The position numbers were made by a program, and so were the translations under genes. The notes beneath the pieces were generated by a model, which ran no database searches, was not told the DNA's origin, and worked only from the letters and a program-made list of their open reading frames with translations. Below are positions 8,686-20,081 of a stretch of DNA of 64,000 nucleotides, in pieces (position 1 is the first letter of the stretch; each line of letters opens with the position of its first letter). Source of the stretch: an uncultured Nitrososphaeraceae archaeon (GTDB lineage: Archaea > Thermoproteota > Nitrososphaeria > Nitrososphaerales > Nitrososphaeraceae); NCBI GenBank assembly GCA_963825865.1, contig CAWGVG010000021.1, positions 160,001 to 224,000 on the forward strand. Direction: 5' to 3'.

Positions 8686-9886
8686 TTACTTATTTGTAAC
8701 ATCAGCATCAGACCTTATTGGTTGGTTTTGTCCTTTTAATTCCTGTACTTCTACCCTCAACTTCATTACTTGATCTGACAATGTTGCTATGGCATCTGTA
8801 TTCATAGAATCACGTTGTCTTAGTAACTGCATCTCTTTTTCTTTCTCAGATAGCTTAGCCTCAATGCTTTTACCTGTAGCTTCCAGCAGGGTTGAATAGT
8901 CTAAGAATGTAAGATACTTATCATTTAGTAGCATAGATTTCCCTTCTTTCAGATTCTTTTATTGTGTAATAAGGACTCTTATTATGACCCAAGAACCATT
9001 CAGAATAATCCTGCCCGACTTGATTACCAATTACACTCTTTACAAACCTTCTCAAAGAATGTAATGTTATTTTTCTTTTTTTCATTCCTTCTTTTCTTTC
9101 ATCAAGTTTGGCAGCTTGGAGGACTTTGTTGAACTCAGCATTTACCTTCACATATAGAGTCTGTGGATGTGATTTTACTCTAAATACATTGAATACTAGG
9201 TCGTCAGGATTTGGCAACTGTGTAGGATTACAATCTCTTTTACGACATCTCCAATCCAACCACTGCGTTAGATACTTCTTCATCTGAGATATAGATATTT
9301 CTTGAAACTCTAGTCTTGGAATACTCTTTACGAACATGAATTCTGGTAGTATTAACAGAAAATCTATATCTTTAAAACGGATGGCTAATGCTTCGACTGC
9401 GCGCATTCCACCACTGGCCAGAACTAGGAGATATGCTTTAAGTCTGCGGTTATTTCAAGACAACAATATCTTTCTAACATCTTCAACATCTATTGATTCT
9501 TCATCTTCCTTTCCAATTTTTGGAACTTTGACTATTCGCTTAAATTTCGATGGTATGATGTCAATGTCGTAATATGCTAAATACGATCTCATACCAATTA
9601 AAATGGCCCTTATTGTCATAGGTGCAAGCTTTTCATCTTTTGTTGTTTCGTATGTAATAAAACTATCAATTAATTCAGACATCAATTTGTTTATCCAGTA
9701 TTAGTTTTAGTATACTCTCTACAGTATAACCACCATTAAATTTGCCATCCAAGAATCTTTGAAAATGAACTAATGCAGTTTCGTAGTTCTTTTTGTCTTT
9801 AGACTATTTCTCCCCACGCTATCTAAAAATGTTCTAACTTTTGGAAGGTTGTTAATTACTGTACGTGTGGAGATAGTTACCGACAT
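8686..9886 (-). pseudogene. tyrosine recombinase/integrase (XerC/D-like), several frameshifts
   Basis: Starts MSVTISTRT...; LASGGMRAVEAL (catalytic R), TLHSLRRF (HxxR), EWFLGH...YY; C-terminal coiled coil; spread over ORFs 9455-9685, 8921-9406 and 8686-8934. Confidence 0.85.
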
Positions 9887-9921
9887 TCCTAGTATTATCA
9901 ACTAAAATTTAATATATACTT

Positions 9922-10320
9922 TTAAAGTGTATGCTTTTTTGCATGTATCAATTTTTGCAGTTCTTTAACACAAGAACCCAACTCTTGCTTTGCCTCTTGT
10001 TCGTTTCCTTTGTTAATTATGATTTCTCCCGGCCCAAATTTTGAACCATTGATTGTAAGTGGTATATCAAGATGTAGCATTTCAGCTATAAATTCAAAAA
10101 GATTTGGGTAAGTTAAATTGTTTATATAAACATATGTGGTCGTTCCGTTGCTAACAACTCCTTCTTTCTTTAATGGAAACACAAAATCTGGCGAAGATAT
10201 AGAATCAACGATGCTGATTGCTGCATTTTTTGATTCATACCATAATTTCTTATGTTGTTTTTTTAACTCTACGTATTTCTTTGCTGTATATTCTAGTTCA
10301 TCTAAATTAATCATTACCAC
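9922..10320 (-). CDS. conserved hypothetical protein
   Basis: Intact 132-aa ORF divergent from rnp4. Confidence 0.6.
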   Translation of the reverse strand: MVMINLDELEYTAKKYVELKKQHKKLWYESKNAAISIVDSISSPDFVFPLKKEGVVSNGTTTYVYINNLTYPNLFEFIAEMLHLDIPLTINGSKFGPGEIIINKGNEQEAKQELGSCVKELQKLIHAKKHTL

Positions 10321-10452
10321 CTAAAGATAATCACACTACAGGTTAATTACAGTATTTACTCGAAAACGAGTAACTAATGATGGGCCAATCAAAAACATAA
10401 AATAAATACTTATGTTTTAATTCGTATTTCGTATTATTGGGTATAATATTAG

Positions 10453-10767
10453 ATGAGAAAACAACAGATTGCAAAGGAGATTGCAAAGGAAAGGATTTAC
10501 ATTTTGATAACAAATGCTTTATATGAATTAAAAGAAGAAGATAAAGATAATCTTGTAAATGCTTATGCAAGGCTCGCTAAAAAAATTGCAATGCGTCTGC
10601 GCTTAAAGCTTCCTTACGAAATTCGGCAGTTATATTGTAAAGGCTGTAAACAATTTATTTCTCCAGGAAAGAGTGCTAGAGTAAGAATAGGAAGATCAAA
10701 TACAAAGGCCATAAGAATTACTTGCTTAAAATGTGGGCATGTTTATCGCAAAGTCTTAAATCACTAA
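10453..10767 (+). CDS. rnp4: ribonuclease P protein component 4 (Rpp21/Rpr2)
   Basis: IAKERI, YCKGC...PG...RVRI...TCLKCG Zn ribbon. Confidence 0.9.
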   Translation: MRKQQIAKEIAKERIYILITNALYELKEEDKDNLVNAYARLAKKIAMRLRLKLPYEIRQLYCKGCKQFISPGKSARVRIGRSNTKAIRITCLKCGHVYRKVLNH

Positions 10768-10847
10768 GGATTGATTACTTCAAAGTAATTCCTATAAATT
10801 AAGAATAAGGATTTATAAGGGATCTACCGCGTGATTATTTAGTAATT

Positions 10848-11300
10848 ATGGCCAAAGCTTATGATATTCCTTCTGATGATCTCATTGCAGTGTTATCTGA
10901 ACAGCTAAAAAAAGACAAGAAAATTGAACCTCCAAGCTGGGCAGCATTTGTCAAGACCGGTGCTCATGTTGAAAAAATTCCCCAAAACAGGGACTGGTGG
11001 TATACAAGATGCGCTTCTCTTTTGAGAAAAGTTTACATCCACGGTCCTATCGGTATTTCGGATCTAAAAAGTAAATATGGTGGCAGAAAACAAATTGGAT
11101 ACAACCTATCTCACCATAAGGACGCAGGTGGAGCAATTATTCGTAAGGCATTACACCAACTGGAGGCAGCTGGTTATATCGTCAAAAAAAGCAAAGGTAG
11201 ATTGATCTCAGATGAGGGAATGAAAAAAATCGATAGATTAGCCACCGAATCTTATAAAGAGATTATCAAGTCTTCGCCAGAGTTACAACGATACGCCTAG
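10848..11300 (+). CDS. rps19e: 30S ribosomal protein S19e
   Basis: PSWAAFVKTG, DWWYTRCASLLRKVY, GAIIRKALHQLE. Confidence 0.97.
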   Translation: MAKAYDIPSDDLIAVLSEQLKKDKKIEPPSWAAFVKTGAHVEKIPQNRDWWYTRCASLLRKVYIHGPIGISDLKSKYGGRKQIGYNLSHHKDAGGAIIRKALHQLEAAGYIVKKSKGRLISDEGMKKIDRLATESYKEIIKSSPELQRYA

Positions 11301-11329
11301 GTTTTTCCTGTGAGGAGAGATGAAGAGGC

Positions 11330-11617
11330 ATGTCGATTCCTCAACCACAAGAACCAAGTGATGAAGACAAGAAGCGGGAAGCTGAAGCAGTGGCTATGCG
11401 GCAACGTGCTCTAATGGTTCTTTTAGAGCCTTCCGCACGTCAAAGGTTGATGAATGTTAGAATGGTCAAACCAGAACTGGCTACAGCAGTTGAAAATTAT
11501 TTAATAAATGCAGCTTCAACAGGAAAACTGAATAAATCACTGACGGATGAAGAATTGAAACAAATCTTACTTAGCATACAGCAACCAAAAAAAGATTTCA
11601 AAATAAACAGACGCTAA
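11330..11617 (+). CDS. PDCD5/TFAR19-like DNA-binding protein
   Basis: LEPSARQRLMNVRMVKPELATAVENYLI...DEELKQIL...KINRR; conserved position after S19e. Confidence 0.92.
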   Translation: MSIPQPQEPSDEDKKREAEAVAMRQRALMVLLEPSARQRLMNVRMVKPELATAVENYLINAASTGKLNKSLTDEELKQILLSIQQPKKDFKINRR

Positions 11618-11623
11618 CTAAAA

Positions 11624-11798
11624 TTAATGTAGTTATGGACTTGCTTTAATAGCAGTTTTCTGATATTGATACCAACAACCGATGTCACAGAAAATCAAAA
11701 TCAAAATCAATCAAATTTCTGGGTATAATTCAAACGAATATTATAGGAATTTCATCAATTCATGTAAATCTGAAGCCACAAGCGTGATTATCGCAAGG
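11624..11798 (+). repeat. left terminal inverted repeat
   Basis: TTAATGTAGTTATGGAC...GATTATCGCAAGG. Confidence 0.95.
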
Positions 11799-12268
11799 GC
11801 TTAGGCTATTTCATGGACTATATGAGCATTGAACCTGAAAAAGAAGATTATGCCAAGTTGATTGAAGGTAGAGATGTCAGGATTATTCAATCCGACATAA
11901 TCAATTGGATCACACATATGAAAGACACAGCAGGATTATCTCCTGCTTCAATCAAGCTTTACACTGCTGGCGTATATCATTTTTACAAAATGAATGATAT
12001 AGTGCTAAACAAAGATAAAGTCAATGCCTTCAAGCCTGAATTTCACAACGTTGTTGAAGACCAGCCATATACAAGGCAACAGATCAAGACAATGTTGGAT
12101 AAAGCAGAACCTAGAAATCGTGCTATAATTCTGTTACTAAGTTCATCAGGTATGCGTGTTGGTGCATTACCGAATTTAAAGGTAGGTGACTTGACGTCTA
12201 TAGACAAATACAACATATATCAGATACAAGTCTACAAACGTTCAAAATCCAAGTATATCACATATTAG
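11682..12268 (+). pseudogene. tyrosine recombinase N-terminal half, truncated
   Basis: MSQKIKI...YRNFINSCKSEAT / KRDYRKGLGYFMDY...LSPASIKLY...RNRAIILLLSSSGMRVGAL; ends before the HxxR and Tyr motifs. Confidence 0.85.
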
Positions 12269-12269
12269 T

Positions 12270-12685
12270 ATGGAGCAACAGATTCGAGAAATTCTTAGTT
12301 CAATTCAACGGTCCATCTGCATCCTTCCGTATTAACGAACCCATTGTAAGACACAACGATCCAAGTTCGCTCAAAGACATTCTTGAGCAATTTATGCTAG
12401 GCATTAGTGTTCCAAATCTCAAATCCGTTGAAGATATCAGATGCGACAAGTATGTTATGAATGGCAATGATGAAACATGTAGCACTGGTTTTTACTAGGA
12501 CTGTGAGTTATCTTGATACAAATAAAATCGTCACATTGATGGTAATTTCAGAGCATGAGGGAGTTATGTATTATTTTACATATGAAGCACTTCCAGACAA
12601 TTTTGATGCTATACTGCCAACCGTAGAAAAAATGATTAACTCTTTTAAAATATTGGCAAATACGACTCAGACTCTGTCCTCATAA
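12270..12685 (+). pseudogene. PsbP-like domain protein fragment
   Basis: YYFTYEALPDNFDAILPTVEKMINSFKI C-terminal motif. Confidence 0.6.
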
Positions 12686-13214
12686 CGTCGTCGCTATCCA
12701 ACTCAAGAAGACTTTGAATACCGTTTGGAGAAATAGAGATGGATTATAAAATATGTAATTGGCACTGATTGAGGATTAATTCTCCAAGTTAAAGACAGAT
12801 GATCAGAAATACGACAGAATAAAAGGCATGATAACAGGATAGAAACTAAAACAGACCCACCTTTTAAAATCTGTGATCCCTGTGTTTATGGTGAATATAA
12901 GAGGCTTGAAAGACTATATTAGAAGACCTTATAGACCAGAAAAAGGTATGGTAAACCCTACCGATGGCAATATCTATGAATACGGGTAGGAAGAGTTGAC
13001 GAACAAATAGGCAAACGCTTAGGAATATCGTATGAAACTTAAATTATCCATCATGTTTGTTCATTTGAAAAACGTACGGCATTACAACCGTTCAATTTTG
13101 GAAAGTTTTACAGACCTATGATTAAGATGCTTTTCAAGTATAGGTTATAACTTACGTTATGTTTTGTTAGCTGAAGTAACGCCTCGCCATTACAGGCCTT
13201 TTGAGTTCAAATGT

Positions 13215-13292
13215 GCTATTTGACGGATTTGACGGCGTATTTGACGCGCTATTTGACCGCTCATTGACACATTTGACGCGCTATTTGACGGA
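13215..13292. repeat. array of seven (T)TTGAC units
   Basis: TTGAC at 13220, 13229, 13241, 13253, 13264, 13273 and 13285; TTTGACGCGCTATTTGAC occurs twice. Confidence 0.85.
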
Positions 13293-13393
13293 CATATGAT
13301 AAATATATAAACTGATGTCACTATTTCTTAAGTAAGTAAATAAGAATATGCCTGAGCGATTCCAGAAACTATAAAATCACGAGTTATAATACA

Positions 13394-14619
13394 ATGGCTC
13401 CAAGGCCTTATTAGTAAGGTATGAAAAAATCAGAGAACTATCTTGCACTGGTTTGCTTAGCTTGTTGTATTATTGTCTATAGGAGGATAATTTTGGGATA
13501 GGCTCTTCCCTGTCTTTTCTTATATGTTGAAAAATTCTATGGAGCTTAATCCAATATGACCCTACTATATTTTCGTTCTGTGATATGATATGTAGACATA
13601 TGGATTATATTGTTCAGACTGGATGCTGGTAATAGCTCTAATACTTGCCATAGTAACACTTGCAGGTTTTATTTCTCCAGCAATCCTTTTAGGACTAATT
13701 TTTCTACTTGGGCTAGAGAGCAATAAGTACGCCTGCATTTTCTCCATTTTTGCTTGGAACAGTTCCTCGTAGCGAGATTAGAAGTGCTATAACATTAAAT
13801 GGTGTAGCATTAAACATTGGTCGAGGAATAGGACCTGCAATTGGTGGTATTATAGTATAGCGATATAGGACCTGCGAGCAGTCTTTCTAATCAACTCCTT
13901 GTCATTTACTGGAATTGTAATAGTTCTTCTGCGGTACTAAGAACATGAACAGCACAGGGCAGCAAACAGACAGAAGAAATTAGTCGCCTTCCTGCAGAAA
14001 GAATGTTTGGTGCTATTCGGGGCTGGCTTGAGATATGTCAGAAATAGCCCTTCAATAAATAGTGTATTTGTTAGATATACTGCTTTTGCAGTATCATCAA
14101 ATGCACTTCCAGCATTACTTCCATCATTATCGCGTTTTGCATTAAGATTAGACTCTACTGGCTATGGAATTTTGTTTGGTCTTTTTGGTGTGGGGGCAAT
14201 CATAGGTGGAATTAAAATGTAACCAAGAGCAATTAAGAAAACATCTCCTGATAATTTGGTAGTTATTGCAAAAGCTTATTTTCTCAGTTTCATACATCAT
14301 ACTTGGATTGATACATAATCTAGTTGTATTATATGCTCAAATGGTACATAGCTGGAATTGCACAGCTTATGGCATTTTCTACGTTGGTACTTATGTTCTA
14401 TATCGTGGTTTGCCAAACTGGGTGATGTCCCGAGTTGCTTCTGTATATCAGTCGAGTTTTGCAAGTACCATAGTGGGTGGAACTTACTTTGGGTGTAAAA
14501 CTGCTGACAAATTAGGAATTAGGATTACGTTACTAATAACAGGTATTGCAATAGTATCAGCAGGATTAATCACAAAGTTAAAGTTCCCTCTCCTGCATGT
14601 AGAGGGAGAAGTCTCTTAA
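13394..14619 (+). pseudogene. decayed MFS transporter (MFS_3/DUF894-like)
   Basis: Fragments NIGRGIGPAIGGI, GLRYVRNSP, ALPALLPSLSRF, GYGILFGLFGVGAIIG, LPNWVMSRVASVY; many stops and frameshifts. Confidence 0.7.
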
Positions 14620-14967
14620 GACATTTAGTAATACTGTCTAAGACTTTATCTGTCTTCTATGGGTGCTATTTAAAGAACCAAAACGTTAGGCTGACTGAGT
14701 TAGGCAGAAAAAATTGTGATAAAGGAATATCTATTCCACCATCAACTCATCAGGCACGTTAACCTATGATAAGACTGACTAGTGAATAATCGGACCAACT
14801 ACCATGGATGGATGGATGATAATGCGGGCAATTGCAGATTTGGACATCTTGACCAAATTAAACAGATAAACAAACATGGATTTAATTTTTGAATTACAAA
14901 CAGATCGTTACTGATGATCAGAAACACTATGTCCGAAAAATAGATAAATGGAATTCTTCCTTGTTAA

Positions 14968-15416
14968 CTAATTTATCAAAGGATCAATGCTATACCTGGT
15001 TTTGATGTCCGATCCTTTTCTAGTTACATGCAATCACGAAGTAACCTTTTTCTATCCACTTTAGCATTTCTGCCGCTTACAGTTTCAGATGAAGTCCATT
15101 CCATCTCCTCTTCAGTCGCAGACTTAGAACTTCTAAGCTCATGCACACAAAACTTGTATCTGTTAACTGGTTTGTCTGGTTGGCTTTCATATGTAACTAT
15201 CTCTTCGGTGGTTTTTTTGGGACAAATTGCAGTAACTTATGATCTCCATCTTTGAACTTGATGAATTTCGTGTTCCTTGAAGATGCTTTCTGGTCTCCAA
15301 TTGTAACCTCATATCTGCTGCCTTACGTTTGGTTTCCTCACTTAGGACTTGTTTGCCTGTATTCTTTGTACTTGTTTTTTATTTACATTTACACTTGCAG
15401 TTTGATTTGCTGACAT
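14968..15416 (-). pseudogene. virus/plasmid-like protein, possibly a phage-type ssDNA-binding OB fold; frameshifted
   Basis: Across frames: MSANQT...KFIKFKDGDHKLLQFVP...PVNRYKFCVHE...EMEWTSSETV...HVTRKGSDIKTRYSIDPL*. Confidence 0.4.
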
Positions 15417-15550
15417 TTTACTATCAAGCAAGCATACAACGTTTACCAATATGGCTTTTTTCATCTTACATTGTTATCTAGATCATCATACTCTGTTGAT
15501 TCTTTACATACTCTATATGGCTTGAATTCTTTGCATTTACATTCAAACAA

Positions 15551-15721
15551 CCTTGCGATAATCACGCTTGTGGCTTCAGATTTACATGAATTGATGAAAT
15601 TCCTATAATATTCGTTTGAATTATACCCAGAAATTTGATTGATTTTGATTTTGATTTTCTGTGACATCGGTTGTTGGTATCAGTATCAGAAAACTGCTAT
15701 TAAAGTCCATAACTACATTAA
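15551..15721 (-). repeat. right terminal inverted repeat (second copy of the integrase 5' end)
   Basis: Encodes MSQKIKIKINQISGYNSNEYYRNFINSCKSEATSVIIAR, as in the left copy; fused to a CKCKEF Zn-finger tail. Confidence 0.95.
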
Positions 15722-15865
15722 CTAAAATAGTTGTTTTATATATAATTTTTTGCACATATATATATATATATATGCTATCTCAGCTAACTTGACAAGGCAT
15801 ATCTCGTTAAAATTAGCGATTTGGGTTTAGTTAACTATATTAAGTCTTGACATCGTTTCAATTTT

Positions 15866-16916
15866 ATGAAGGCAGCCGTATTTCGGGAATATAATAAAGA
15901 TCCTACAAAAGTTGTGAAGATTGAAGATATTGACATGCCAAAATTGAAACCTAACGAAGTTATGATGAAGGTAGAATCAGCATCATACAATTATAATGAC
16001 CTTTGGGCTATTTGGGGAGACCCGCTTAAAGTTCCAATACCACATATTTCTGGCAGCGATGTGGCAGGTACCTATAGTAGAGGCTGGCGAAGATGTTACA
16101 AAATTCAAGGTCGGAGACAGGGTTGTCTCACATTCTAACTTAAGCTGCAGAGTTTGTAATATGTGTACATCTGGGAGAGAGTATGACTGCAATGATAGAT
16201 TAGTCTGGGGATTCCAGACGGGTCCACTGTGGGGCGGTTTTGTTCAATATACACATCTACCAGAAGTAAACGTTGCCAAAATACCGGACAATATATCATT
16301 TGATGACGCAGCCGCAATCTCAATGGTTGGAATGACTGCATGGCACATGTTAGTAGGCAGAGCCAAGATAAAGCCTGGTCAAACAGTCCTGATCATGGGT
16401 GGGACCAGTGGAGTAGGCATGGCAGGAATTCAGATTGCAAAATTATACAACTGCACCGTCATTGCTACTGCAGGTAATAAAGAAAAAATGGACAAATGTT
16501 CAGAGATAGGCGCAGACTATGTAGTTAACCACAGAGAAGCAGATTGGCATAAGAAGGTAAGAGAGATTACAAAGAAACAGGGCGTAGATGTTATCTTTGA
16601 ACATATCGGCAAAGCAGCATTTGCACAAGAAGTTGCCCTTTTGAAGATGGCTGGAACTCTTGTAGCGACAGGTGCAACTACTGGTTACGATTCAACTATT
16701 GACTTGAGATATCTCTTCTTCAAAGGAACAAACTTGCTCGGCTCCACTCAGGGAACTAAAGCTGAACTAGAAGAGGTAATTTATTGGACGGGCAAGGGCA
16801 AGATAAAGCCCATTATTCATACAATTCTACCCTTTAGTGACATGGTAAAAGGCCATATAATGATGGCTAATGCTGAACAGATTGGAAAAATTCTAACTAC
16901 ACCACAGAAACTCTAA
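15866..16916 (+). CDS. zinc-binding MDR-family oxidoreductase; one frameshift near 16070
   Basis: MKAAVF...PHISGSDVAG, KVGDRV, CRVCNMC...C, GGTSGVG, GVDVIFEHIG. Confidence 0.9.
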
Positions 16917-16952
16917 TCTTCATCCTCCTTCTCTTGTCTTTCATACATACAG

Positions 16953-17873
16953 ATGATGTTCAGAAGTCTGATATTTGTTCCTAGCAACATCAAGCGTTTT
17001 ATTAATAAAGTTAAGGTAGTAAATGCGGATATTATATGCTTTGATCTAGAAGATTCTGTCCCTGTAAATGAAAAAGCTGTCGCGAGGCAGACGATCATGG
17101 AGGCGCTGACACAAAGGACGGAATATAAATCAAATGTCTATATCAGGATAAATTCCTTTGAATCTGGTCTAGCACTTCTAGACCTAAACGCAATAATTCG
17201 CAAGGGAATTGATGGAATTGTCATACCAAAGGTAAATGACGAAATGGAATTTTCCAATCTAGTAGATCTTATTTCTACTCTTGAGCAGAAGAGGGGAATT
17301 GAAAAGAACAGTATCAAATTGATGCCATCTATTGAAACTGCAAAAGGTGTGGTTAATGCTTATTCCATAGCAAAGACAGTTCAAAGAGTAAATGCGTTAG
17401 TTTTTGGAGTTTTTGATTTCCTTTATGATATGCGTCTTGATTATGATGAAAATGATGGAATTGAATATGCATATGCTCGCGCCAAAGTCTCTGTTGATGC
17501 AAGAGCTGCAGGAGTTGCCGCTATTGACGGCATCTGGCAAAAAGTCGACGATATTGATGGGTTAAGAAAAGATGCTATAATTGCAAAGCGATTAGGATAT
17601 TCAGGAAAGAGTATAATTCATCCTAATCATATAGAAACAGTTCACAAAATTTTTGTCCCAAACAGAAAAGAAATTGAATGGGCAAAGAAAGTATTGGAAG
17701 CGCTGGGTGAAGCAATGGAAAAAGGAGCCAACAGAGGTACAGTTAAGCTTGAAGGAAAAATGATTGATGCTGTACATTACAAACAGGCAAAGGCAATTTT
17801 GGATGCTATAAATAATAATAAAAATAAAAATAATAATAAAAATAAAAATTTGAATTTAGAAAATCCAAAATAA
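16953..17873 (+). CDS. CitE/HpcH-family CoA-ester lyase
   Basis: RSLIFVP, FDLEDSV, IRIN, VIPKV, IETAKG, GYSGKSIIHP, GKMID. Confidence 0.92.
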   Translation: MMFRSLIFVPSNIKRFINKVKVVNADIICFDLEDSVPVNEKAVARQTIMEALTQRTEYKSNVYIRINSFESGLALLDLNAIIRKGIDGIVIPKVNDEMEFSNLVDLISTLEQKRGIEKNSIKLMPSIETAKGVVNAYSIAKTVQRVNALVFGVFDFLYDMRLDYDENDGIEYAYARAKVSVDARAAGVAAIDGIWQKVDDIDGLRKDAIIAKRLGYSGKSIIHPNHIETVHKIFVPNRKEIEWAKKVLEALGEAMEKGANRGTVKLEGKMIDAVHYKQAKAILDAINNNKNKNNNKNKNLNLENPK

Positions 17874-17884
17874 CGTCATAAAGA

Positions 17885-19118
17885 TTGTCGGGAAGGAAAC
17901 CCACATTTCTTTAGAAGTGGGAGGAATTCCCGACTATGATAAAAGCTAAATACTGGGTTATTGATAGATATTTCCAATATTCTTGCTTCAATCCCTAACG
18001 ATCAGGCTTGAAACTTCAGAAGAAGATAAAATCACTTTGCTAGAGACTATGAGAAAATACAATGAAGCATGCAATTTTGTTGCTGAAAAAGCATTTTTCT
18101 TAAAGTTAACTAACAAATACAAACTGCATAAGGAAGTATATAGAGAGATAAGAGAGAAGTTTAACCAAAGTTCTCAGTTCGCTGTTAGGATAATAGGGAA
18201 GGTTGTAGAGGCATACAAAAGAGATAAAACAACCAAGCCCAAGTTTAGAGAACTTGGAGCAATCCAATACGATCAGCGCAATTCCAAAATAGGAATTGAC
18301 AAAGTATCAATAATGACATTAAACGGAAGGATCAAACTTGCAACCAGGATAGGCGAAGTACCAGAAATCAAGGTTTGACAGGGTAAAAGGGCAATCTGAT
18401 TTAATTTATAGAAATGGAATTTTCTACCTAATTGTAGTTGTTGATGCATCTGAGAAATCAAATGAATACGATCCAGTAGGTGCTTTAGGCGTTGATCTAG
18501 GAATTGAGAATATAGCAGTAGATTCAGATCGGCAGGTATTTGAAAGCAAGAAAGTTGAGAAATCAAGGAAAAGGTACTCTGGATTACGAAAGGAATTGCA
18601 GAAGGTAGGGACTAAATCAGCAAAGAGAAAGTTAAAGAAATTATCAGGTAAGGAACGAAGATTCAAGAAGGATGCTAACCACGTTATATCAAAGGCCATT
18701 GTCTCAAAGGCTAAAGGCACAGCTAGGGCTATAGGGATGGAAGACTTGACAAATATATGCACAAGCTCTAGGGCAACTGTTAACTTCAAAGGTAGCAAAA
18801 GAGACAGGCATTCAAAATGGAGCTTTGGAGAATTGAGGAACTTTGTAACGTACAAGGCAAAGAATGAAGGTGTCCCATTGAAGATTGTAAGTTCTAAGAA
18901 CACTTCAAGGCAATGCCCTGAATGCGAATACATAGATCAGAGAAACAGAAAATCAAGGAATGAATTTGAATGCCTTCAATGTGGCTATAATGAAATGGCG
19001 GACTATGTTGCAGCAAAGAATATTGCTGCCAAGGCTAGGGCTGCAGTCAATCAGCCTATTGTAGCACCTCTTTTTTCGGTAGTTACAAGCCCACATACTT
19101 TAGTGGTGGGTAGTTGAC
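17885..19118 (+). mobile_element. IS200/IS605-family TnpB-only (IS1341-like) element
   Basis: Left hairpin GTCGGGAA..CCCAC..TTTAG..GTGGG..TTCCCGAC (17887-17934); right hairpin CCCAC..TTTAG..GTGGG followed by TAGTTGAC; no tnpA. Confidence 0.85.
17983..19117 (+). CDS. tnpB: TnpB RNA-guided nuclease (frameshifted near 18360-18430)
   Basis: RuvC-I GVDLG, RuvC-II IGMEDL, Zn finger CPEC/CLQCG, RuvC-III ADYVAAKNI. Confidence 0.9.
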
Positions 19119-19238
19119 ATAAAATTATAGGATACAATATACCCAGCCCTCTAGTGCAATGTAATTTTATACTTGCTTGTTTATTTTAAATTGTTGATTA
19201 ATTAATTGATTAATCGGTATCTAATACTGGTTTATTAG

Positions 19239-19850
19239 ATGGATGATGACATTATTTTTCATATATCTATGAAAAAAGATGCACCTTCTTTTTATCATCA
19301 TCAAACAACGGATACCTCTTCTTCTTCTTCCATTACTGCTGATTATAAATCGATTGAAAGTAATTCAGAACTGTTATTTGATCGAAAGGTTGATCAAGCT
19401 ACGGCAGGCTTAGATTCACACTATCGTGAGAGCCTAAAAAACAAAGTATCAAAGGAAAATGCTCTTGCAATATCAAATTTCGTCCTTGCAATGAAGTCTG
19501 AAATCAATCTTTCAGATCATTATAGAAGGCTAATTATTACAGTGCTATGCAAATTCTCTTGCTTCCACAACAACAATCAGAAACCCTTTAGTGAAATATC
19601 TAGAGACGATGTACTATCTTATCTGGACAGCCTTCGCAAACCAGAAGTGATAGATCCGTTGCATAAATGGTTAGGCACGTACAACCTTTACAGAATGTTA
19701 TTAATGAGATTTTTCAGATGGTTTTATTACCAAGATATAGAGCCAAACAAAAGACCAAAACCGAAGGCAGTTGAAAACATCGCCCAATTGAAAAGGAAAG
19801 AGCAGTCAATATACAAACCTACTGACTTATGGAGCAAAGAAGATGACATC
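19239..19850 (+). pseudogene. integrase N-terminal (SAM-like) fragment
   Basis: SKENALAISNF...EINLSDHYR...DDVLSYLDSLRKPE..DPLHKWLGTYN...FFRWFY...KRKEQSIYKPTDLW; catalytic domain absent. Confidence 0.75.
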
Positions 19851-20081
19851 TTCGTCATGAATATATCTAGGTGTAGCCGCCATAATCAGACAATCATATT
19901 TTTTAATTTCTTCTTCAATGTCCTCTAATAAATTTGACGGTGACTGCGTATATTTTCCTACTGTCCCTCCGGTAGAAAATCCTTTTGATTGCGCTAAATT
20001 TATAACATTTTCTACAAAAGGTTTATCCTCTTCTCTCGAACTACAACTTAAGAAAGCTTTTATATTTTGATCGTCTGCCAT
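19847..20081 (-). pseudogene. TIR-like/DUF4062-like domain fragment, 3'-truncated
   Basis: KAFLSCSSREEDKPFV...LEDIEEEIKKYDCLIMAATPRY. Confidence 0.55.

Follow-up and report, generated by a model that had tools for sequence, protein, structure and literature searches.

A transposon-like unit with inverted integrase starts as the probable remnant of a tyrosine-integrase element in a soil Nitrososphaeraceae archaeon

The stretch of DNA analysed here, called the window throughout, comprises 64,000 nucleotides (positions 160,001 to 224,000) of contig CAWGVG010000021.1, here contig C21, from the GenBank assembly GCA_963825865.1, the metagenome-derived genome of an uncultured soil archaeon of the Nitrososphaeraceae (4.98 Mb in 62 contigs, 81.8% complete). 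Between the genes of a PDCD5-like protein and a zinc-type alcohol dehydrogenase (ADH), the window holds a 4.1-kb unit (11615-15728) whose two ends are inverted copies of the beginning of a tyrosine integrase gene, bracketed by a short direct repeat. An initial annotation, made from the letters of the window, proposed that this could be an undescribed composite element, in which two integrase 5' modules act as ends and move arbitrary cargo with an enzyme supplied in trans. With a probability of roughly two in three, we regard the unit rather as the decayed, non-autonomous remnant of a tyrosine-integrase element still sitting in its attachment (att) site, the integrase-proximal end of which was once duplicated in inverted orientation. 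The features that frame the unit, in window coordinates and with the basis of each call in brackets, are the following.

11330-11617, plus strand: gene of the PDCD5-like dsDNA-binding protein, left host flank, with its stop codon inside the putative att core (PF01984, E = 6.6e-25; S19e-PDCD5-ADH-HpcH synteny in relatives)
11615-11628, plus strand: candidate attL core, with host half-site TAA, 6-bp overlap CTAAAA, and TTAAT starting the presumed integrase-binding arm (direct repeat; layouts of related elements on contigs C27 and C29; empty-site contigs reaching 11628)
11624-11798, plus strand: left arm, with core-type site TTAATGTAGTT, promoter region (CTTTAATAGCAGTTTT), ATG at 11682 and integrase codons 1-39; native (C29 homology unbroken over 11798/11799)
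11682-12265, plus strand: tyrosine integrase, N-terminal ~190 codons, with a frame break near 11801, cut at ~12265, the catalytic His/Arg/Tyr part missing (open reading frames, ORFs; profile; homology)
15459-15550, minus strand: unique 92-nt linker from the truncated integrase start to the upstream region of a small gene named p139, within a chimeric 68-aa ORF, 15461-15667 (ORF list and alignments; bridged in the soil runs X1 and X2)
15551-15721, minus strand: right arm, a truncated inverted copy of the integrase-proximal end (alignments; C29 comparison)
15718-15728, plus strand: candidate attR core TTAA-CTAAAA-T, in which the host-side TTAA half-site of the empty allele appears missing or altered (direct repeat; soil contigs; sequence of a relative)
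15866-16916, plus strand: zinc-type ADH gene of the MDR family, right host flank, with a frame break at ~16071-16073 that is not in soil contigs (profile match; synteny)

The two arms (175 nt on the left, 171 nt on the right) differ in a pairwise alignment by one mismatch and one 4-nt indel. A repeat search splits them into a stretch of 155 nt at 99% (11644-11798 and 15551-15705) and another of 19 nt at 100% (11624-11642 and 15703-15721), and blastn gives 97.1% over 175 columns. Each arm contains 58 nt of upstream sequence, corresponding to the integrase promoter region, followed by the ATG and codons 1-39, so that the same 39 residues, MSQKIKIKINQISGYNSNEYYRNFINSCKSEATSVIIAR, are encoded in the ORFs 11682-11804 (plus strand) and 15461-15667 (minus strand). 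These codons are the true N-terminus of the integrase, since unsplit homologues (L010, of 345 aa, L104 and the C27 paralog) carry the matching Y-R-x-F-I...K-S stretch within one gene. The direct repeat TAACTAAAAT stands at 11615-11624 and 15719-15728, its left copy opening with the TAA stop codon of the PDCD5-like gene, and the chance of an 8-nt flank identity at fixed positions is ~3e-5 to 5e-5 in the window. In all this, that is, the near-perfect inversion, the content of the arms and the bracketing repeat at the PDCD5 stop, the initial annotation was right. No tRNA gene and no Rfam family were detected in 9000-19000, nor any internal att relic in the unit, the motif counts in the window being at or below the shuffled expectation.

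The annotation had also predicted a discrete insertion, with an empty site to be found between the PDCD5 and MDR genes. Contigs from four public soil runs of four studies (X1, X2, X4 and X5) were aligned to 10800-16800 with the (TA)n stretch at 15744-15782 masked, and in both X2 and X5 a single contig spans 10800-11628 and resumes at 15783, with 50 and 47 nt in between, respectively. In X1, the flanking contigs end at 11618 and 15726 and the interior of the unit is covered, with a depth of 15.2 for the arm against 6.9 for the adjoining bin, as expected for two collapsed arms; the parts of the unit left uncovered in X4 and X5 carry no evidential weight. Relatives keep a gene row of S19e, PDCD5-like, zinc-type dehydrogenase and HpcH-type lyase, in which the ADH gene follows PDCD5 in 16 of 29 loci, at a distance of 45-250 nt in 15 of these and of 1059 nt in one; the remaining 13 loci have no dehydrogenase gene inside the fetched flank. 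The same gap measures 4248 nt in the window, and 144 nt once the unit and one copy of the repeat are removed. The bridging contigs and this adjacency show that the unit is a true insertion, that its empty allele is present in soil populations and that the relic is polymorphic for presence and absence among them. A 26-mer of the left flank gave no stretch among JGI metagenome contigs. The ends of the X1 contigs were set aside as evidence, as 15726 would fit an empty allele ...CTAAAATTAATAGTTG... and 11618 fits no model. As a separate observation, the 1059-nt gap (442-1501 of locus L087, G017:C6) may be another insertion at the same spot.

These data also bear on whether the unit could be an artefact, with a chimeric or fold-back join made during a metagenome assembly prone to errors. 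In its favour, the assembly shows many 1-nt indels when compared with short-read contigs, such as those in the ADH gene (16071-16073) and in an MFS gene on contig C57 that is split over three frames, and the outer junctions were not seen bridged in the soil-contig rows shown. Against it, the inner junctions are bridged by contigs from the runs of two studies (the one at ~12265 by an independent X1 contig covering 12112-12520, the one at 15550/15551 by contigs of both X1 and X2), the X1 arm has about twice the depth of its neighbour, and the arms end exactly at the direct-repeated core, flanked by the halves of a conserved gene pair. With the inner joints bridged, an empty allele at hand and the PDCD5-ADH adjacency in relatives, an artefact is highly improbable.

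The nature of the direct repeat was approached through related elements of the same genome. The closest paralog of the integrase (66% identity), on contig C27, is preceded at C27:171183 by the 11-mer TTAATGTAGTT, which occurs seven times in the genome, two of them at the tips of the unit in the window. A 14-bp direct repeat, AATCATTCTTAATG, ending in the TTAATGTAGTT motif, is found at C27:171193 and 158643. The C27 element thus bounded measures 12.5 kb (G000:C27:158643-171206; L177 5643-18206), contains genes for the integrase, a primpol-D5_N-DUF5906 helicase, a PsbP_2 protein and a helix-turn-helix (HTH) protein together with small ORFs, and sits between an Lrp/AsnC-type gene and a PP-loop ATPase gene. 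The integrase-proximal boundaries of this element, of the unit and of a more distant relative on contig C29 can be laid out as follows.

Window: host arm GCTAA, 6-bp spacer CTAAAA, integrase-side arm TTAATGTAG
C27: host arm ATTAA, 6-bp spacer TCATTC, integrase-side arm TTAATGTAG
C29: host arm GTTAA, 6-bp spacer TATTGA, integrase-side arm TTAACATAC

Three related elements of one genome have therefore TAA-N6-TTAA at this boundary, with a spacer that differs from one element to another. Read in this way, TAA-N6-TTAA is a pair of inverted half-sites around a 6-bp spacer, the form described for tyrosine-recombinase core sites (PMC8371274), and short inverted ends around a 6-bp spacer are also usual in bacterial tyrosine transposons (PMC10214605). 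At the left junction, the match of the empty-allele contigs extends four letters (TAAT) past TAACTAAAAT, to 11628, and a relative carries TAGCTAAAAATTATTG at the same place, so that the host site probably reads TAA-CTAAAA-TTAAT. Such a shared TAAT beyond the repeat would be expected of an att core common to site and element, more than of a target duplication. The right junction in the window reads CATTAA-CTAAAA-TAGTTG, where the host-side TTAA seems to have been lost or changed, and an att site would predict an empty allele ...GACGCTAA CTAAAA TTAAT... with one core. The size and position of the repeat are within what has been published for thaumarchaeal att repeats, for which the survey reports a shortest length of 8 bp, a median of 17, and 14 of 68 cases at gene 3' ends and 15 of 68 in intergenic regions (PMC6563490). 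For one lineage of soil-archaeal integrases, this suggests a core site that can be put to the test, namely TAA-N6-TTAA plus the arm TTAATGTAGTT.

The initial annotation had noted that long terminal inverted repeats plus a target duplication are typical of DDE transposons and casposons. If the unit were such an element, or a miniature inverted-repeat transposable element (MITE), the 8-bp ACTAAAAT would be a target-site duplication left by staggered cuts and the integrase starts would be incidental; the 8-bp repeat indeed directly abuts the terminal inverted repeats, and the unit contains a scrap of IS5-type transposase gene. However, no transposase or Cas1 gene is present in the unit, PF01867 (Cas1) has no match in the 81.8%-complete assembly (of 14 control genomes, 7 gave a positive result), the genome has no further copy of the termini, unlike what a MITE would show, and the terminal motif and the position of the repeat match the C27 boundary, which has a 14-bp repeat and no inverted ends. 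Together with the four extra letters shared by the empty-site contigs, this makes a DDE-, MITE- or casposon-like origin very unlikely. A target duplication is not needed, and the direct repeat reads best as the crossover core of a tyrosine recombinase, in line with C27 and the published repeats.

Regarding the integrase itself, the gene that starts in the left arm extends to about codon 190, its frame being broken by one base near 11801, and its profile, PF00589, is matched at positions 4-70 only (12071-12262). The integrases of C27 and of a metagenome contig (L107, 88% identical to that of the window) proceed into the catalytic part, whereas the window turns to unrelated sequence at ~12265, and the C-terminal catalytic half (Arg-His-Arg-Tyr) has no match in any frame of 11000-16500. 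With an integrase that ends around residue 190, the unit is non-autonomous, as the initial annotation had anticipated. Run X5 holds a longer version of this integrase, extending past 12263, without the cargo of the unit. The frame break near 11801 may be an assembly error, since comparison with short-read contigs reveals many single-base indels in the assembly; between the X5 contig over 11662-11896 and the window there is one gap. In the same assembly, the dehydrogenase gene is frame-broken (16071-16073) in the window only, and not in soil contigs or relatives, and the MFS_3 gene at G000:C57:8005-9584 runs over three frames with no stops, so frame breaks in this genome should not be taken as pseudogenes without read support.

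Which of the two arms is the original one can be read from the third, more distant copy of the integrase start, on C29 (86% over 11706-11932), where it has been joined to the middle of an MCM gene via an internal deletion. Homology to this copy crosses 11798/11799 in the left arm only, which indicates that the left arm is native and the right arm derived. At the far end of the C29 remnant nothing convincing was found. The gene next to the right arm, p139, is a conserved small gene of integrase-MCM elements (L067 7779-8198 and 12281-12571; G000:C27:70607-71047; C33:127512-127717). It is co-oriented with the right-arm integrase start, and in three out of three other loci that have an integrase within 12 kb (C21:132-137 kb, with MCM in between, C33, and C27:70-77 kb) it also lies downstream of the integrase and co-oriented with it. 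Followed along the minus strand, the right end resembles an ordinary element that has lost everything from integrase codon 39 to p139. Altogether, these alignments show the left arm as the native integrase start and the right arm as a truncated inverted copy of it fused to p139.

A split integrase of the SSV-type, or 'suicidal', kind was also considered, as the inner end of the repeat falls at codon 39, near the frame break and the first ORF start of the C27 paralog, and as in those systems an integrase fragment of a few dozen codons stands at the border of the element. This possibility was discarded: C29 is homologous across 11798/11799, a few positions after which the window is one base short; in C29, C27, L104 and L010, the N-terminal 39 codons run directly into the rest of the gene; and the element border lies upstream of the promoter region and not inside the gene, the fragment facing inward and including its promoter.

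The interior of the unit, between the integrase stump and the linker, contains the following.

12266-13077, no strand assigned: filler including ORF 12461-12685 (possible PsbP_2-type C-terminal scrap) and the segment 12695-12762 (profile and similarity searches)
13078-13410, plus strand: start of a multi-copy HTH/coiled-coil gene of 446 aa, cut at 13410 after 21 codons and preceded by its upstream region, which contains TATTTGACG repeats at 13215-13290 (88% to C26:200583-200932; copies in C2 and C22)
13409-13507, plus strand: 3' piece, ~100 nt long, of a transposase gene of the IS5 type, DDE_Tnp_1 (matches of 77-89% at 8 further genomic places; intact gene in L067)
13717-14601, plus strand: MFS_3 transporter pseudogene, 5'-truncated, with in-frame stops (PF05977 in three frames)
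14672-14774, no strand assigned: segment 84% to C28:14811-14915, ~5 kb downstream of a minus-strand C28 integrase (sequence similarity)
14968-15416, minus strand: homologue of p139, the 139-aa gene of integrase-MCM elements, here in three frames (71-73% in three of four tblastn pieces)

The annotation had named a PsbP fragment, an MFS relic and an SSB-like gene as transported cargo. The MFS label holds, with PF05977 spread over three frames interrupted by two TAA and one TAG, and with profile positions 1-116 missing. The ORF at 12461-12685 is possibly a PsbP_2-type C-terminal scrap, as suggested by a BLASTP match to the C-terminus of a PsbP_2 protein (E = 0.062), with no Pfam or PHROG match. 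A function in single-stranded DNA binding (SSB) for p139 is a weak lead, coming from Atlas look-alikes that are viral hypothetical proteins, in one cluster of which (rank 8) 17% of the members carry Phi29_Phage_SSB; p139 has no sequence match in Pfam, PHROG or PDB. As the annotation stated, there is no DDE transposase gene inside, the only trace being the IS5-type fragment at 13409-13507, whose very high depth in the soil runs (40 in one run, >100 in the other three) is due to its being a piece of transposase gene. The segment 12695-12762 is 83% identical to C6:57931-57999, and by comparison with contig C6 it is inverted relative to the p139 region. These comparisons show a cargo made up of gene fragments, debris of other mobile elements and not transported genes. 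As for the 446-aa gene, it combines an N-terminal HTH (weak HTH_23 and HTH_Tnp_ISL3 matches) with a coiled coil, one copy being at C2:48442-48678, and together with its TATTTGACG array could be an unrecognised mobile-element gene or a regulator gene with an operator array.

We therefore favour, at the probability given above, a decayed element remnant with a duplicated integrase-proximal end. Its parent would be one of the 'cryptic integrated elements' of the integrase-MCM kind, common in soil Nitrososphaeraceae, and its attachment site would be the end of the PDCD5-like gene, at the stop codon. The direct repeat of 8-10 bp would be the crossover core, TAA-CTAAAA-TTAAT, and the integrase is predicted to bind a core-type site formed by the ~17 bp at the outer tip of each arm (TTAATGTAGTTATGGAC), so that the joined ends would form a lox/FRT-like 17-6-17 site. 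The inversion of the other ~155 bp of each arm would simply reflect a unit built from two partial element copies, tail to tail, a layout with which the short matches at 12695-12762 (to C6) and 14672-14774 (to C28) agree. The inverted copy halts exactly at the core and the core stands in direct orientation, which suggests that the joint was made at the recombination site. This could have happened through an aberrant head-to-head joining of attL (or attP) with attR, or through the inversion of one of two tandemly integrated copies, followed in either case by deletions; any particular route is rather doubtful, and tandem integrations have been reported in Thaumarchaeota (PMC6563490). The unit would excise or integrate only with a cognate integrase acting in trans, and its attR may be damaged. 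Its transposon-like look is then that of the recombinase's own symmetric core site plus a one-off duplication. On this reading, an ordinary integrative element can decay into a transposon mimic, with long terminal inverted repeats and a flanking direct repeat, which is a warning for the automated calling of mobile elements.

The proposal of the initial annotation implied further paired copies with other cargo, and none was found. Among the 18 integrase loci of the genome, this is the only one with an inverted copy of the integrase 5' end (0 of 17 paralog loci), and the 16-nt terminus occurs nowhere in the genome beyond the two tips in the window. The DNA of the arm gave only short low-complexity matches in 200 other genomes of the family; 73 public homologous loci (2 GTDB contigs and 71 JGI metagenomes), 17 of which are informative in having at least 300 nt upstream and 4 kb downstream, included none with an inverted repeat touching the integrase start; and none of 40 loci from family genomes, with ~10-kb flanks, shows inverted integrase-5' ends. 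The integrase family as such is common, with a match at E <= 1e-20 in 80 of 238 family genomes, a tally that counts the genomes G034 and G076, from which nothing else was drawn. A 29-mer from the arm was absent from IMG/VR, and five contigs of that database with the 17-nt terminus were dismissed as chance, as they have no integrase, MCM or p139 match and the similarity stops after 17-30 nt. The locus is thus, as searched, a one-off inverted duplication, the outcome that the annotation had itself set against its proposal.

A different kind of inverted arrangement was met at G054:C73:77196-102006 (L180, L218-L220), where two inverted integrase-bearing blocks of ~9.2 kb flank 3.9 kb of other DNA. 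The copies are alike at 98.6% over 8.55 kb and 99.2% over 0.64 kb, their integrase starts face the centre, and one of them is broken by a 2.6-kb IS-like insertion (IS, insertion sequence). It was rejected as a second example on account of its different topology and the lack of direct repeats at its four boundaries.

An undescribed family of non-autonomous tyrosine-recombinase elements, with integrase 5' modules as long inverted ends and arbitrary cargo mobilised in trans, nonetheless draws on several features. At each end, an intact core-type site stands beside the same 6-8-bp direct core, which makes excision to a circle with a perfectly palindromic att site formally possible; some soil populations have the unit and others do not; the longer integrase in X5 lacks the cargo; and the arms are nearly identical. 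Besides the missing second example, however, the right arm is joined to p139 at its inner end by a plain deletion, the cargo is debris, and only ~17 bp per tip would be needed for recombination. Thus the part of the original proposal that stands is a discrete, non-autonomous insertion with an empty allele, while the new family it postulated is unlikely. In a related view, the unit would be a working miniature integrative element, comparable to a foldback element or MITE but based on a tyrosine recombinase. After excision, the circle would bear a near-perfect palindrome of ~350 bp around a 6-bp core, and the unit would owe its origin to integrases of this lineage that use a symmetric TTAA-N6-TTAA core and can join two sites head to head. 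We consider this quite unlikely; if true, head-to-head joining would be a general route to trans-mobilised cargo carriers ending in inverted repeats in soil archaea. Should the ends be recombination-competent, trans-mobilisation in ammonia-oxidising archaea, a group that lacks genetic tools, could be studied on the unit as a natural substrate.

The arms could also serve a programmed module for inversion or amplification, in which recombination between them flips the 3.75-kb interior, in the manner of the 2-micron plasmid or of an invertible promoter. The near-identical inverted arms, each with an inward-facing promoter-like region, suit this idea, and archaeal integrases are known to cause inversions (PMC8371274). 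Nevertheless, there is no intact recombinase in the unit and no intact gene in its interior to be switched, and no other example was found in the genome or in the 73 public and 40 family loci. Back-joining or strand-changing joints were likewise absent among those shown for the four soil runs, a negative that is uninformative as contigs drop rare forms. Such a module is extremely improbable.

Several points weigh against the decayed remnant that we prefer. The content of the middle of the unit (the MFS relic, the start of the 446-aa gene and the IS scrap) is not known from integrase-MCM elements and, beyond the arms, the tail-to-tail arrangement is supported by p139 and by short matches of 68 and 103 nt. 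With ~74-86% to the nearest other copy (C29) and 97-99% between the arms themselves, either the duplication is recent or the arms have been kept alike, and this likeness would suit a long repeat with a function no less than an accident of recent date. The integrase-side arm TTAATGTAG was found upstream of 2 of 49 more distant homologous loci, with 2.3 expected, so the motif appears specific to the closest relatives. Whether the core measures 10 or 14 bp, and in what state attR is, can be judged from the ends of the empty-allele alignments only. No cognate intact integrase was found in this assembly. Finally, short-read assemblies break at repeats of 170 bp, which makes the negatives from public contigs weak.

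Placed among known systems, the unit has several partial counterparts. The CIME-type elements of streptococcal integrative and conjugative elements are att-flanked defective remnants that have kept their recombination sites, have lost their recombination and replication genes, and move only with the help of a related element, attL and attR coming from one element in the normal order. The unit likewise lacks recombination and replication genes, but both of its ends come from the integrase-proximal side. In loxP, FRT and dif sites, inverted binding arms surround a spacer of 6-8 bp, and the joined ends of the unit would similarly give inverted arms around an asymmetric spacer of 6 bp (or 8 bp). 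The yeast 2-micron plasmid has 599-bp inverted repeats, each with an FRT site inside, that drive inversion; the unit shares with it long inverted repeats that contain a putative tyrosine-recombinase site, but here the sites are at the outer tips of an integrated relic without enzyme.

Bacterial SEs, with imperfect terminal inverted repeats of 13-19 bp and a 6-bp spacer, and RITs, with 34-bp repeats (PMC10214605), differ in size, since the arms here measure 171-175 bp, include coding sequence and belong to an archaeal host; and instead of the operon of two or three recombinase genes of RITs, SEs and Tn554 there is one truncated integrase with a 39-codon copy of its start. In layout, the unit is like the thaumarchaeal cryptic integrated elements with tyrosine integrase and MCM helicase (Krupovic et al. 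2019, PMC6563490), which have an integrase at one end and a short direct repeat at the 3' end of a protein gene or in an intergenic region, and the relatives of the unit in the same genome carry MCM or primpol-helicase genes. The unit differs from them in having ~190 integrase codons left and no replication gene, and in that its integrase-distal end has been replaced by an inverted integrase-proximal copy, for which the accessible part of that survey contains no case. Of the traits of a tyrosine-recombinase integrative element, the unit shows the integrase beside a boundary, the short direct repeat at both ends and the empty site; it has no complete catalytic domain, so it is a remnant and not an active member.

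Other mobile sequences surround the unit or resemble it. A second tyrosine integrase, of another lineage, lies 2 kb to the left on the minus strand (8921-9900), in two frames (ORFs 9455-9685 and 8921-9406) with one in-frame TGA, and matches PF00589 positions 4-158 at 8978-9490; the neighbourhood may be a hot spot for integrated elements. To the right, directly after the HpcH gene, the plus-strand stretch 17983-19928 looks like a TnpB-type element, with ORFs split over frames that encode a Cas12f1-like TNB domain (18596-19117, 5.7e-19) and a weak OrfB_IS605 match, followed by an ORF at 19239-19928 with a weak match to an integrase SAM-like domain. Elsewhere on the same contig, two direct IS5-type copies (G000:C21:130941-131364 and 147608-148030, in L067), 98% alike over 424 nt and 16.7 kb apart, bracket an integrase-MCM element, which may be a composite arrangement or the result of two independent insertions.

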